NCBI GenBank assembly: GCA_934120135.1
Contig: CAKOTK010000003.1
Location: 83,691 to 147,690, forward strand
Source of the DNA: an uncultured Clostridia bacterium
GTDB lineage: Bacteria; Bacillota; Clostridia; TANB77; CAG-508
Direction: 5' to 3'
DNA: 64,000 bases
In this document: in pieces, positions 6,698 to 64,000 of the stretch
Layout: every line of letters begins with the position of its first letter
Position numbering within the stretch: the stretch's first letter is position 1
Notes under the pieces: model-generated
Databases searched by the model: none
Told to the model about the DNA's origin: nothing
The model's input: the letters and a program-made list of their open reading frames with translations, nothing else
Translations under genes and position numbers: made by a program

Positions 6698-7405
6698 TTA
6701 CTTTCCACCAAACTTACGATTTCTTTTTTCAAAAACTGATATTGCTTCATCTAAATCTTGTTCTGAAAAATCTGGCCAATATTTTTGCACAAAATAGAAC
6801 TCTGTATAAGCAAGCTGCCACAAAAGGAAATTGCTAAGTCTTTGTTCTCCACTTGTACGAATTAACAAGTCTGGCTCTAACTGTCCTGCTGTATAAAGTG
6901 AATTTGAAATAGTTTGTTCATCAATGTCTTCAACATTTATTTTATCTTCTTTTACTTCTTCTGCTATTTTTCTAACAGCTCTTACTATTTCATCTCTTCC
7001 GCCATAATTAAATGCAATATTTAATACTAAACCTGTATTATTTTTTGTTTTTTCTATTATTTTATTTATACTTTTTTGAAGTCCTGTATCTAAGTCTACA
7101 ATATTTCCTAGCATATTAACTTTAATATTTTCAAAATCATCACTACTTAAAAATTCTTCTAAATATTTTTGAAGTAAAAGCATTAAAGCTCCAACTTCTT
7201 CTTTGGTTCTTTTCCAATTTTCTGTTGAAAAAGCATATACTGTTAAATATTTTATTCCAAGCTTATTGGCATATTTAGCAATTTTTCTTAATGATTCTGC
7301 TCCTTCTTTATGTCCTAATCTATAGTCTAAGCCTTTTTCTTTAGCCCATCTACGATTTCCATCCATTATAATTGCAATATGTTTTGGTAATAACTTCTCT
7401 TCCAT
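6698..7405 (-). CDS. uppS: undecaprenyl diphosphate synthase
   Basis: 235 aa; HIAIIMDGNRRWA motif, cis-prenyltransferase fold; conserved position after frr. Confidence 0.9.
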   Translation of the reverse strand: MEEKLLPKHIAIIMDGNRRWAKEKGLDYRLGHKEGAESLRKIAKYANKLGIKYLTVYAFSTENWKRTKEEVGALMLLLQKYLEEFLSSDDFENIKVNMLGNIVDLDTGLQKSINKIIEKTKNNTGLVLNIAFNYGGRDEIVRAVRKIAEEVKEDKINVEDIDEQTISNSLYTAGQLEPDLLIRTSGEQRLSNFLLWQLAYTEFYFVQKYWPDFSEQDLDEAISVFEKRNRKFGGK

Positions 7406-7474
7406 ATTCTTCCTTTCTTATTACGTAATTTCAATTCTAAAAAGAATTAGTAGATTGTAAGGCACAGTGCGCCC

Positions 7475-18101: not shown

Positions 18102-19313
18102 TTAACCTACTGTCAACTTGCCATATACTCCGCCACCACCTGCTTGAATAGTGGCTTTGCCCTCTCTTGCTGCTACTATTGTTTTTGCAACTTTTTCTCC
18201 TACAACTGCTTCTATATCGTCTTCTGATAATTTATGTAGAATGTTCATTTCTGTCTCAAATGTGTTTAATAGCTTGTCTATTGTTTTACTTCCTAATCCA
18301 GGAATAAATGTTAATGGCACTTGGTAAACATATGGTGGTCTATTTGCGGGACTTATACTCTTTTCTTTGTCTCTAATACTTACAATTCTATCTAGTACTC
18401 CCATTGTAATATTTGTTCCATGGCATTCCGGACATTCAAATACTGGTGGTTCTCCCTCAATTGGTTTATCACAAGTTTCACAATATGTTCTGTGATATTT
18501 ACCAAGTTTTGGGTCTAACCCATAATTGCATAATATTTTTCTACCATCTTCATTTTTCAAAGCTTTTAATAGCTCTTTAAATGAAATATCTTCTACTAAT
18601 ATTTTATTGTATTCTCTAGCTATTTTAGGCAAAGAGTGTGCATCAGAATTTGTTATAAATGTTCTAGTTTCTAATTCTGATATTTGATCTGCAAGTTCGG
18701 TATCTGCACTTAGCCCTAGTTCTATTGCAAATATCTTGTTAAATTTTTCTTTGAAAATTCTTTCTAAACGACTTGTACAATTTCCATAAAAGCTTTTATG
18801 TGGTGTAAAAGCATGTGCTGGTATTAGTACTCCATTAAATTTTTCTACTATATCAACCAATTCATATGCAGATATACAAGCTCTTTGAGAACTTAATGTT
18901 ATATTTTTAATGTATTTGCTCATTTCTTTTGAAAATGCTTTTATATCTGCCAAGCTTGGAAAATAGCATAGATTGTGTGCACTACCAGTTTTGCCATTGT
19001 CATTTATCTCTGATGTTTCTATTTCACTACCTAAAATTATACATACTTTGTCTTTATATATAATTCCACCATCTTTTATTTCATACGCTTCACCAGTTTT
19101 TAAAAATTCTTCTATATCTTCTATAACATAAGGTGATGCACAATCTATAATTCCAACTATTTGTATGCCTTTTCTCTCAGCACATTCTTTTGCAATATTA
19201 GCAAAGTTTAAGCTCCTTGCTGCCGTTATTTTTATTGGTTTTCCTTTTTCACTTCTTCCTATGTGCACATGTAAATCTGCAAACATTTCTTGCATCATAT
19301 ATCCCTCCTCCAC
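18102..19313 (-). CDS. PHP-domain nuclease with C-terminal zinc ribbon, endonuclease Q-like (TIGR00375-type)
   Basis: N-terminal FADLHVHIG PHP metal-binding motif; C-terminal CETCDKP...CPECHG Zn-finger; about 400 aa architecture matches EndoQ. Confidence 0.5.
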   Translation of the reverse strand: MEEGYMMQEMFADLHVHIGRSEKGKPIKITAARSLNFANIAKECAERKGIQIVGIIDCASPYVIEDIEEFLKTGEAYEIKDGGIIYKDKVCIILGSEIETSEINDNGKTGSAHNLCYFPSLADIKAFSKEMSKYIKNITLSSQRACISAYELVDIVEKFNGVLIPAHAFTPHKSFYGNCTSRLERIFKEKFNKIFAIELGLSADTELADQISELETRTFITNSDAHSLPKIAREYNKILVEDISFKELLKALKNEDGRKILCNYGLDPKLGKYHRTYCETCDKPIEGEPPVFECPECHGTNITMGVLDRIVSIRDKEKSISPANRPPYVYQVPLTFIPGLGSKTIDKLLNTFETEMNILHKLSEDDIEAVVGEKVAKTIVAAREGKATIQAGGGGVYGKLTVG

Positions 19314-23728: not shown

Positions 23729-24040
23729 ATGCAGTCAGGTAAGCTGACCATTCTAGAACGGTTAACAAACCGTTCGCAACACGGCAGTACATCTGCTGAG
23801 CTGAACCTGTACAAACGGCAGGCTAAAAAGTTGGTCTCTGAGGGCTTTAAGCTCGAAAAGCTCTCCCCGATTAGTGGGAGATTTGGTCAGTATCGGTACG
23901 CTATTTCTTGGCGTCATGCTGTCATCAATACTACTGCCCATGATCTTCTCATGGTAGCAGTGGAAAACAACGAACAGCTTCGTGAAGAACTTACTTCACA
24001 GGCATCTAATCCTGTGAAGCCGCCTTACAGTTATTCGTAA
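23729..24040 (+). CDS. compositionally foreign ORF (103 aa, about 50% GC, CTG/CGG-rich codon usage)
   Basis: ATG at 23729 with host-type RBS GGAGGA; MQSGKLTILERLTNRSQHGSTSAELNLYKRQAKKL...; GC about 50% versus about 28% flanks; flanked by AT-rich promoter-like sequence and a perfect 10-bp GC hairpin terminator. Confidence 0.5.
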   Translation: MQSGKLTILERLTNRSQHGSTSAELNLYKRQAKKLVSEGFKLEKLSPISGRFGQYRYAISWRHAVINTTAHDLLMVAVENNEQLREELTSQASNPVKPPYSYS

Positions 24041-59429: not shown

Positions 59430-59590
59430 TAATATGCTTTGATGAATCAAGATGTTAATTATTTTTTTGTAATTTTAAAAATAATTAGTATATTGCGAGG
59501 AAAGGTGCATTAAAAAGTCAAGGGCGCATACGTTTGTATGTAACCGCGTTTTTAATGTACTTTTACGAAACAAGATGCTGATTATTTTTA
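59430..59590. other. conserved structured intergenic element, copy B, with a partial tandem second copy (B2, 59430-59468)
   Basis: Core 59484-59590 matches copy A (42101-42213), including inner hairpin GCG-CATAC/GTATG-CGC and outer A/U stem. The about 35-nt 3' tail motif recurs upstream at 59430-59468. Confidence 0.6.
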
Positions 59591-59594
59591 AAAT

Positions 59595-60254
59595 TTAGAG
59601 TAATTTTGTGTCATTAATAACCAACTCAAACCAAATTCCTAAATACTTAGCTGCATATTTGCTCATCATAGTTCTATCCATAAATATTTCAAAATAGTCT
59701 AGCACTGGAGATATTTTAGTATCAATTGTTAAGTCTAAAGTAACTTTTCTATTTTCTTTATCTATTATAAATTTTGAATCAGTAACTGCATAATTAACTT
59801 TATCATGTTTATCAAATGTAGAAATATTTTTATTTACTACTCTACTACGATGTGCATCAGACTTGTCCGCTAATATTAAAGCAGCTGATATATCACTTAC
59901 CGCAGTTCCAGTTTGTTCATCATGATTTCCTATTGCCATCATTATTTCGGTTCTTTGCTCGACGCTCATTCCCATATCTTTTAATATTTGATATGCAAGT
60001 ATTGCTCCTGTATGAGCATGATCTACTCTGTTAATACAGTTTCCTATATCATGCATATAACCAGCTATTTTAGCAAGTTCTATTCTTTCTTCTGGATAGT
60101 CTAGTGTTTGTAGTAATTCTCCTGCACGCTGTGATACAATACTCATATGTCTTATTGAGTGTTCTGTGTATCCTAAGGCATTTAACTGTTTTTGTGAACT
60201 TAATATTAATTGAGTAAGTTCTTCATTTTTCTTTACATCTTCTAAAGTAATCAA
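59595..60254 (-). CDS. HD-domain metal-dependent phosphohydrolase
   Basis: 219 aa; H…HD (MHDIGN) …H…H…D pattern. Confidence 0.6.
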   Translation of the reverse strand: MITLEDVKKNEELTQLILSSQKQLNALGYTEHSIRHMSIVSQRAGELLQTLDYPEERIELAKIAGYMHDIGNCINRVDHAHTGAILAYQILKDMGMSVEQRTEIMMAIGNHDEQTGTAVSDISAALILADKSDAHRSRVVNKNISTFDKHDKVNYAVTDSKFIIDKENRKVTLDLTIDTKISPVLDYFEIFMDRTMMSKYAAKYLGIWFELVINDTKLL

Positions 60255-62484: not shown

Positions 62485-63628
<1,144 letters not shown>

Positions 63629-63660
63629 TTAATTTTTTTAAAAATATATAATATTAAAAG

Positions 63661-63800
63661 AAAGCGCAGTCCGCGTAAGGTGGAGCGAAGCGTAACGGTT
63701 GGAGAGTTCCGTCCGATAGTGTCCAAAAACAAATTTATTTGTTTTTGTGACATCCAAGGGAAGGAAGCTCGACACCAAGGACAAGCGATTTTAATATTAT
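63661..63800. other. GC-rich structured element of unknown identity between queA and tgt (candidate ncRNA/leader)
   Basis: About 140 nt at about 50% GC in an AT-rich intergenic region; contains a 15-bp A/U hairpin (CAAAAACAAAT-tt-ATTTGTTTTTG), direct repeat CCAAGG x2 and GGAAGGAAGC; strand undetermined. Confidence 0.35.
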
Positions 63801-63817
63801 ATATTTTGTATAACAAT

Positions 63818-64000
63818 TTAATGTATAAACATTGCATCACCAAATGAGAAAAATTTATACTGTTCTTTCACAGCTTCCTCATAAGCCTTCATTATAAAAT
63901 CTTTTCCAGCTAATGCTGAAACTAACATTATTAAAGTTGATTCCGGCAAATGAAAATTAGTAATTAACGCATCTAAGCATTTAAATTTATAGCCGGGATA
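63818..64000 (-). CDS. queA: S-adenosylmethionine:tRNA ribosyltransferase-isomerase, C-terminal fragment (gene continues beyond window end)
   Basis: Minus-strand translation ends …[47 protein letters not shown], the conserved QueA C-terminus; queA-tgt synteny. Confidence 0.7.

Follow-up and report, generated by a model that had tools for sequence, protein, structure and literature searches.

We analysed a 64,000-nt stretch of DNA (the window) from a contig of an uncultured Clostridia bacterium that is identical to contig ERZ4567950 NODE_67 of a Hadza human-gut metagenome. In this AT-rich window (28.6% G+C) the genes queA and tgt lie on the minus strand, queA extending past the window end, and are separated by a spacer of 204 nt (63614-63817) that is bounded upstream by the queA stop codon (63818-63820, minus strand) and at its other end by the tgt start codon ATG (63611-63613, minus strand), with an AGGAGA ribosome-binding site just upstream of the latter. 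The spacer holds a conserved GC-rich core of 129 nt (63660-63788, 48.8% G+C), whose better-folding, G-rich strand is the plus strand and is thus antisense to queA and tgt. The immediate flanks of the core have 18-20% G+C, and the two arms that clamp it have 0%. The left arm, AAAATATATAATATTAAAA (63641-63659), lies 27 nt from the tgt ATG and forms a perfect 19-bp inverted repeat, helix P1, with the right arm, TTTTAATATTATATATTTT (63789-63807), which ends 10 nt from the queA stop; neither arm is assigned a strand. The window has no other perfect 19-mer inverted repeat with a spacer of at most 300 nt, and 40 Markov-1 simulations produced none (0/40). Against dinucleotide shuffles, the region 63640-63817 gave folding z-scores of -8.1 (minus strand) and -7.3 (plus strand), and the core alone gave -4.2 and -4.1. 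As described below, it is nearly certain that this block belongs to a dispersed 'clamped-hairpin' repeat, of which it is a single copy, and that the repeat is not specific to tgt.

The initial annotation had reported a GC-rich block in the queA-tgt spacer, and the internal features that it listed were all located: the A/U hairpin clamped by UGUC/GACA (63724-63734 with 63737-63747, TGTC at 63720 and GACA at 63749), the direct CCAAGG repeats (63754 and 63775) and the motif GGAAGGAAGC (63759). It had called this motif reminiscent of helix 8 of signal recognition particle (SRP) RNA without matching it. The non-match was borne out, as no SRP model matched at E<=10 and the helix-8 loops are lacking; the resemblance proved merely superficial, GGAAGGAAGC being an ordinary helix strand paired with AGTTCC..CC. 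Two features had been missed, namely the minus-strand direction of queA and tgt and the perfect 19-bp A/T inverted repeat around the core.

A short queA-tgt spacer, presumed normal in the same annotation, was indeed found in the closest relatives. In the closest other lineage, whose Tgt protein is 95% identical and whose gene order is the same, 11 nt separate the queA stop from the tgt ATG, and two more close relatives have spacers of 16 and 30 nt. The element is missing from the queA-tgt spacers of loci L090-L094 (11-30 nt), and a blastn search with it returned no match in the genomes of 80 related species of uncultured Clostridia, whose Tgt proteins are 84-94% identical; among related species, 48 of 72 co-linear queA-tgt spacers measured at most 100 nt. 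Within the species, the element was found in three additional assemblies, in two of which it is a 2-nt variant. Because it is missing at this junction in the closest relatives and in the 80 related species, the block represents an insertion, specific to this lineage, into an operon junction otherwise 11-30 nt long, and a conserved tgt leader or riboswitch is therefore excluded.

A different palindromic repeat family, GGGGACGG...CCGTCCCC, was seen repeatedly in queA-tgt spacers of related species (L051, L075, L069, L065, L086, L048, L043 and L058). These palindromes stand in tandem in some cases (three copies in L065), enclose another element in others (L069) and resemble CGTC-tagged repetitive extragenic palindromes (REPs; PMC3733652).

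Copies of the element occur at several unrelated positions. No second copy was found in the window by blastn-short or by a covariance model built from the family (R1). An exact 20-mer of the core matched 59 loci in human-gut metagenome assemblies, and an exact 21-mer matched one IMG/VR contig, in which the element lies between genes for a dacB-like carboxypeptidase and a ylbJ-like membrane protein. Including the window, 49 complete copies were collected, comprising 19 distinct cores that are all at least 95% alike; the core of the window itself scored 205 bits with R1 and 186 bits with a second-round model (R2), and 47 further complete copies from metagenomes and IMG/VR match it at 95% identity or more. 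Grouped by their flanks, the copies occupy a minimum of four sites in this species group: queA|tgt (site A), dacB-like|ylbJ-like (site B), ffh|rpsP (site C) and mraY/tagO-like|ruvB (site D). Four contigs carry two copies apiece. Many of the matches lie at contig ends, and in seven contigs (L107, L126, L137, L141, L147, L150 and L152) the left flank of one site is fused to the right flank of another, a pattern typical of repeats that exceed the read length; these seven junctions are either assembly chimeras at the repeat or genuine recombination among copies. Two contigs call for a remark of their own: L137 runs on into Nextera adapter sequence, and the IMG/VR contig (IMGVR_UViG_3300030381_000264; L095/L096), although classed as viral, has host-like genes around the element and is probably a prophage with a host flank.

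The clamp of every intact family copy is a perfect inverted repeat 15-21 bp in length, a range that widens to 13-24 bp when the divergent copies described below are included. The clamp arms of different sites are homologous and about 80% identical, with the inner consensus TRTAATRTTAAAA, and only their inner 10-13 nt are common to the sites. Arm differences between sites are always matched in the opposite arm, so that P1 covaries among copies, with double changes at 9 pairs within the near-identical family alone (alignment A1) and at 19/19 pairs in the broader alignment A4. The core is about 97% identical between sites, and its frequent polymorphisms all fall in predicted loops. Of the 13 polymorphic core columns in the near-identical family, just 2 belong to base pairs, whereas the expectation is 80 of 130 (P = 9e-4). 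Positions 63679-63698 had served as the search pattern, which makes their invariance within the family a matter of construction; with the search-pattern columns left out, the depletion of paired columns persisted (P = 5e-4).

Each of sites A-D is occupied in both orientations, relative to the co-directional flanking genes, in different lineages; in the lineage of L107, for instance, the element lies downstream of queA in the opposite orientation. Within a lineage, a single orientation was found at site B over 8-10 independent assemblies, and likewise at sites C and D. Because orientation is constant within each lineage, the differences appear to be inversions between the arms that happen rarely in evolution, as opposed to rapid phase switching. 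Such exchange between the arms, by recombination or template switching, could also keep them perfect. Within single genomes, one (genome X) has three copies antisense and another (genome Y) two copies sense, too few to give this contrast a meaning (P about 0.1-0.25). In L103-type and L116-type contigs, the inner clamp of site D is itself enclosed, at a distance of 13-16 nt, by another pair of arms (ACAATATTAAAA / TTTTAATATTGT), and the inversion breakpoints between lineages at that site fall in this outer pair; in L121 the outer arm abuts the core directly.

Run over 1.4 Mb of related genomes, models R1 and R2 gave seven matches in five other species of uncultured gut Clostridia (L069, L010, L013, L022 and L031), all on the minus strand. 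Three of them lie just after ytxC (L069, 10416-10599; L010, 16610-16772; L013, 16700-16862), and a fourth, in L031 (2954-3151), lies between a convergent ABC-permease gene and ytxC. L010 has another copy 9 nt past the ileS stop (7309-7457), L022 has one 31 nt past the pyrG stop (18173-18339), and a second L069 copy (2546-2694) sits in the queA-tgt spacer, nested within another palindrome. Each divergent copy has its own perfect clamp of 13-24 bp, and most types share the motifs CGCGTA(A)G, TTGGAG, an apical AAATTTATTT and CGACA(C/A)CAAGG; the L031 copy and the second L069 copy, the weakest matches, have kept this set only partly. The repeat is about 167 bp long (143-198 bp). Every copy sits in a spacer downstream of a gene, 9-31 nt past the stop where this was measured, and the neighbouring genes are co-directional or convergent. 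In the genome of the window, ileS is followed by an ordinary hairpin and ytxC by a spacer of 61 nt.

Structure-based alignment of the family with these relatives revealed the cross-species covariation that the initial annotation had proposed looking for. In alignment A4 (12 sequences), 96.9% of cells were paired, compared with 67.4% in shuffled alignments, and in A3 (9 sequences) 98.1% were paired, fractions that are inflated because both alignments were fitted to the structure of the model. Changes on both sides of the pair were found at 47 of the 59 pairs of A4, a number reached in none of 500 shuffles (0/500), and controls with slid partners gave at most 23 such pairs; A3 contained 37 doubly changed pairs. 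In helices 7 and 8 of A4, which form the rod described below, 20 of 25 pairs were altered on both sides, with AGTTCC/GGAAGCT, GCACC/GGTGC and CAACC/GGTTG as examples of compensation.

The predicted fold of the G-rich strand has a constant order of parts, all on the plus strand in the window. Inside the clamp, the consensus fold pairs GTCC (63669-63672) with GGAC (63779-63782) to form helix P2, which reads GCACC/GGTGC instead in divergent copies of L010, L013 and L022. A 5' side branch (63672-63693) contains CGCGTAAG (63672-63679) and a GCGAAGC mini-hairpin (63685-63691); its CGCGTA(A)G is common to the window family and the L069, L010 and L013 types, and its length differs among types. At the base of the rod stands TTGGAG (63699-63704), present in the family, L069, L013 and site F of L010, with TTGAAG or TTTGAG as its counterpart in site E of L010 and in L022. 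The rod helix itself, AGTTCC.../...GGAAGCT (63704-63770), is closed by an A/T apical hairpin (63719-63753) with the loop TTTA. It includes a 2x2 internal loop with a hypervariable dinucleotide (63711-63712), which is GT in the window and AA, AT or AC in other copies, AA being found in two contigs of the same species, L002 and L003. The conserved motif CGACACCAAGG (63770-63780) lies on the rod's 3' side, and its CCAA can pair with TTGG at 63699-63702. The family shares the form CGACA(C/A)CAAGG with L069, L010 and L013; the form in L022, L031 and site F of L010 is ...AGCAAGG. A K-turn at the UUGGAG/CGACA internal loop was considered and rejected, as the tandem G-A arrangement, judged by eye, is unsuitable. 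Small open reading frames (ORFs) spanning the element were likewise rejected: they lack ribosome-binding sites, enter site-specific flanks and are disrupted by indels among copies.

The ytxC-site orthologues of L010 and L013 differ at only 2 of 163 positions, whereas 24 of 286 and 11 of 171 third codon positions differ in the two adjacent genes. The orthologues are thus several times more conserved than neighbouring synonymous sites, and the element is under purifying selection. Paralogues within the L010 and L013 genomes are about 65% alike, as judged by eye, and gene conversion therefore does not explain the conservation of the orthologues. The fold and the junction motifs of the repeat are maintained by selection.

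Other modules of similar design were seen at ytxC and in the window. After ytxC, L012, L031 and L066 have A/T inverted repeats of 16-23 bp around GC-rich cores of 80-150 nt; L031 is the distant family member listed above (33.8 bits), L066 has GGTCCCCAC in common with the nested L069 copy, and L012 looks unrelated. The modules of these three loci point to a wider class of AT-clamped GC cores. A second clamped module in the window itself (59471-59595) has A/T arms of 25 nt (88% complementary) and a GC-richer core of 75 nt (CGAGGAAAGGTGCATT...); it is unlike the queA-tgt element in sequence, and Rfam at gathering thresholds did not match it.

Database searches agreed with the initial annotation, which had called the family of the element unknown. 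At gathering thresholds, Rfam 15 recognized one tRNA only in the whole window, and at E<=10 the window element and two divergent relatives gave nothing beyond generic hairpin (microRNA-precursor) noise. Nothing similar to the element was found in plasmid and phage collections. A scan of viral contigs with the 18-mer GGAAGGAAGCTCGACACC yielded a single chance match inside a phage portal gene (L097), and a degenerate scan of the same contigs (TTGGAG N{45,75} CGACACCAAGG) yielded at least 120 matches, with R1 confirming none of the 79 new loci fetched (0/79). Literature searches returned nothing for strings of the element sequence and nothing relevant by keyword for clostridial MITEs (miniature inverted-repeat transposable elements).

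Signals of transcription or mobility around the copies were equally scarce. In five loci scanned, no consistent sigma-70-like promoter was found on either strand and no canonical intrinsic terminator was called at the element. The divergent members have a T-tract 5' of the core and an A-tract 3' of it, a polarity reversed with respect to a terminator, and the clamped repeat differs from an intrinsic terminator in lacking a GC stem directly followed by a U-tract. The right end of the family carries an outward promoter-like sequence, TCGACA (-35, at 63769) with a 17-nt spacer and a -10 of TAATAT or TAACAT in the arm; the divergent members do not share it. The flanks of at least 10 loci contained housekeeping genes and no transposase, recombinase or reverse transcriptase gene adjoining a copy, nor was a RAYT gene seen in the flanks that were retrieved.

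We then compared the clamped repeat with known dispersed repeats of bacteria. In the Bacillus cereus group, the repeat bcr1 (about 155 bp), interspersed among genes, is co-transcribed with its neighbours, keeps a cruciform-like structure by compensatory changes and differs in distribution between close strains (PMC3184786). The two share occurrence in Firmicutes, a similar size, intergenic dispersal, retention of structure by compensation and a distribution that varies among close relatives. However, they have no sequence similarity, and bcr1 consists of two independent stem-loops with flanking 5-bp direct repeats, whereas the clamped repeat has a site-specific perfect clamp, an asymmetric core and no such direct repeats. 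ERIC (IRU, about 127 bp) of Enterobacteriaceae is an imperfect palindrome found in transcribed intergenic regions and at gene 3' ends, in either orientation; it is highly conserved, can alter mRNA processing and stability, and also keeps its structure by compensatory changes (PMC3184786). The clamped repeat resembles it as a conserved intergenic palindrome that occurs in either orientation, but ERIC belongs to another phylum, shows no similarity and has terminal inverted repeats with a TA motif at both ends, in contrast to the variable arms and constant core described here.

The Correia elements of Neisseria (CREE/NEMIS) are mobile between close strains, can make promoters at their ends and form RNA hairpins that are bound by RNase III and then cleaved or protected (PMC2649163). 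They likewise have inverted repeats around a conserved core; unlike the clamped repeat, whose arms are site-specific and whose copies are few and without duplication, they have sequence-conserved inverted repeats, cause a TA duplication when they insert and are present in hundreds of copies. As regards ERIC, bcr1 and Correia elements as a functional class, which is not one homologous family, the clamped repeat shares with them the form of an imperfect palindrome (100-170 bp, in intergenic spacers inside transcription units or at their ends, in either orientation) and the compensatory changes. REPs are located after ORFs, where the genes are unidirectional or convergent, and their hairpins are thought to act as RNA; the source makes no mention of Firmicutes or Clostridia (PMC3733652). 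Placement after ORFs, a hairpin and the lack of target duplication are common to REPs or REPINs and the clamped repeat, and several divergent members of the latter have GTAG, in REPs an unpaired tag, at the core edge, the window family having GCAG; REPs are nonetheless only 20-40 bp long and highly repeated, whereas the clamped repeat has one copy in the 64-kb window and seven in 1.4 Mb. Finally, MITEs share with it terminal inverted repeats (13-24 bp), dispersed copies and insertion polymorphism, as in the empty sister site and a deletion remnant in L013, but the clamped repeat has no target-site duplication and its arms are unconserved between sites.

Because the fold is maintained by selection, orientation is free and there is no consistent promoter, terminator or target-site duplication, action of the ERIC, bcr1, REP or Correia type is the most likely of the explanations considered. 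By analogy with these systems, we put at about even the chance that the family is a new structured repeat of this kind that acts as a co-transcribed hairpin. Transcription of the host operon would then allow either strand to fold into a long hairpin closed by a perfect A-U helix of 13-24 bp; this clamp hairpin might be the target of a double-strand RNase (RNase III-type) or a barrier to 3' exonucleases, and could in this way define or uncouple transcript ends, here separating queA from tgt.

Several observations weigh against this reading, along with the inflated paired-cell fractions given above. A role at the RNA level is something that we infer from analogy. No flanking direct repeat of at least 2 bp, as target-site duplication would leave, was found at about 20 distinct sites or lineages. 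Copy number is low, about 4-8 per genome by extrapolation, unlike that of genomes rich in REPs or ERIC, and the arm sequences vary between sites, unlike those of classical MITEs. The ileS-site copy of L013 (about 7336-7375) has been deleted to one arm and about 12 nt of core, while its L010 counterpart at 7309-7457 is intact, and individual copies are therefore dispensable. The loops and junction motifs (TTGGAG, CGACACCAAGG and CGCGTAAG) are conserved across genera, which suggests a specific partner and not a generic hairpin.

The two strands of the element are also unequal. Consensus fold energies were -45.8 kcal/mol for the G-rich strand and -28.6 kcal/mol for its complement over 9 sequences, and -30.9 versus -21.8 kcal/mol for four independent types, in a comparison whose alignment and model had been built on the G-rich strand. 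When sequences were folded singly, the G-rich strand had the lower energy in 8 of 9, and this held for each of the four independent types. Moreover, it is antisense in 4/4 divergent copies between co-directional genes (two sites of L069, site F of L010 and L022), which speaks against the co-transcribed hairpin because a purely cis-acting mRNA hairpin does not predict antisense placement. The asymmetry in folding is moderate evidence for a single-stranded form, RNA or single-stranded DNA (ssDNA), of the G-rich strand.

A more ambitious interpretation deserves mention as a tentative possibility, namely that the family represents a new class of functional structured RNAs, or of modules recognised as ssDNA, in uncultured gut Clostridia. 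The core motifs CGCGUAAG, UUGGAG and CGACACCAAGG would bind a specific partner, the freely evolving perfect A-U clamp would serve as a processing stem, and the several copies per genome would colonise new 3' spacers. If so, the modules of L012, L066 and L031 and that at window positions 59471-59595, each an AT clamp plus a GC core, would form a wider superfamily.

A stand-alone family of small RNA genes, in which the G-rich strand would give a structured RNA of about 130-170 nt with a specific protein or RNA partner and the A-U clamp as processing stem, is conceivable, though we hold it to be rather unlikely. It would account for the strand preference in folding, for the unpaired purine-rich motifs and the GNRA-like loop (CGC-GUAA-GCG in L069) conserved across genera, for the purifying selection on orthologues and for an orientation independent of neighbouring genes, which fits an autonomous unit. 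The high G+C of the element in an AT-rich genome also agrees with it, as structural RNA genes are typically GC-high in such genomes. However, the G-rich strand has neither a consistent sigma-70-like promoter nor an intrinsic terminator in the five loci, and the energy comparison that favours this strand depends on an alignment and model made on it. Furthermore, a promoter that survives the inversions must sit inside the clamp arms; a transcript starting there would drop the 5' arm, and the covariation of P1 would be left unexplained.

We think it unlikely that the repeat is a selfish ssDNA element, whose hairpin and unpaired tag would be acted on by an HUH/Y1 (RAYT-like) transposase encoded in trans, or by some other enzyme specific for structure, with the fold kept for propagation and the clamps kept perfect by arm-to-arm template switching or conversion. 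Elements mobilised by HUH enzymes leave no target-site duplication, as at the roughly 20 sites or lineages here, and an unpaired GTAG, the tag of RAYT-associated REPs (PMC3733652), stands at the 5' core edge in the L069, L010, L013 and L022 types; the window family, however, has GCAG at this place. Presence varies among close relatives, copies are nested in other palindromes (at queA|tgt in L069, and as the double arms of site D), the copies show a mosaic of polymorphisms, the flanks of junction contigs are chimeric, and inversion at every site shows that the arms recombine. Against these points stand an element that at 130-185 bp is far bigger than the 20-40 bp of REPs, the low copy number, the lack of a transposase gene beside any copy, and orthologues long held under purifying selection, which is unusual for decaying selfish DNA. 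It has nevertheless been argued that REPINs persist in the long term under purifying selection.

An inverton, in which the inverted repeats would be recombinase sites and the core would carry an outward promoter toggling the downstream gene, is improbable. The geometry is that of known switches, such as the RecV sites of C. difficile and the polysaccharide promoters of B. fragilis among the invertible promoters of Bacteroides: inverted repeats of about 20 bp (15-21 bp in the family) flank 130-200 bp (a core of about 130 bp), and both orientations occur in nature, here at all four family sites. The right end even offers a promoter-like site (TCGACA-17-TAATAT). Yet orientation is fixed per lineage in 8-10 independent assemblies from different samples, that site is not conserved in divergent members, the arms differ between sites while the core, which a recombinase does not need, is conserved, the flanking genes are housekeeping ones (rpsP, ruvB, tgt), and no copy adjoins a recombinase gene.

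A retron-like non-coding RNA without a neighbouring reverse transcriptase is very improbable. The order of parts on the G-rich strand does fit, with the clamp as a1/a2, a G after the 5' arm as the priming G, one or two small 5' hairpins (the side branch) as msr and the long rod as msd, and this G is conserved in the family and four divergent types; still, no reverse transcriptase gene lies beside any of at least 10 distinct loci, and we know of no retrons with multiple copies per genome served by one trans-acting enzyme. As for the tgt leader or riboswitch that the initial annotation had put forward, which might sense preQ1 or queuine, for example, its position directly upstream of tgt and its stable fold speak for it, but it is scarcely credible given that the element is missing upstream of tgt in the relatives compared, that the same core precedes ylbJ-like, rpsP and ruvB genes and its relatives follow ytxC, ileS and pyrG, that it stands in the opposite orientation downstream of queA in the L107 lineage, and that neither the preQ1 riboswitch nor any other Rfam 15 riboswitch family matched at E<=10.

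Two further observations concern genes of the window. The tgt gene (62485-63613, minus strand) contains one extra C, TTAAGACCA-C-GGACAC, at about 63388 (63385-63395), which divides it into ORFs of 84 and 289 codons. This frameshift is common to four independent assemblies (L001, L002, L003 and L147) that are at most 3.4% divergent. Once the frame is corrected, comparison of L001 with L003 shows 34 codon differences that are synonymous and 2 that are non-synonymous, and tgt is therefore still under purifying selection. We regard tgt as a candidate for programmed +1 frameshifting at CCA-CGG-A, CGG being a codon that should be rare in this AT-rich genome, or for a functional split gene; a fixed +1 frameshift under strong purifying selection may equal the repeat family in interest. 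Elsewhere, a 103-codon ORF (23729-24040, plus strand) holds the GC-richest 100 nt (53%, 23770-23869), has no Pfam match and is probably a foreign gene.

All in all, these results define a new family of structured repeats in a poorly known lineage of uncultured gut bacteria. The family comes with a covariance model that works, and its covariation support is comparable to that of curated RNA families. The insertion explains why the queA-tgt junction is ten times longer here than in relatives, and a false lead, the tgt riboswitch or leader, is removed. To our knowledge, no repeat has been described that joins an asymmetric, constant core to a perfect clamp specific to each site, and that has a low copy number and is retained in the long term under purifying selection. 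Since such elements fragment metagenome assemblies and yield chimeric contigs, the covariance model is also of practical use. If the junction motifs mark a specific partner, the family would be a candidate new class of non-coding RNA; if they mark the recognition site of an enzyme, it would represent a new kind of structure-dependent mobile element in Firmicutes.

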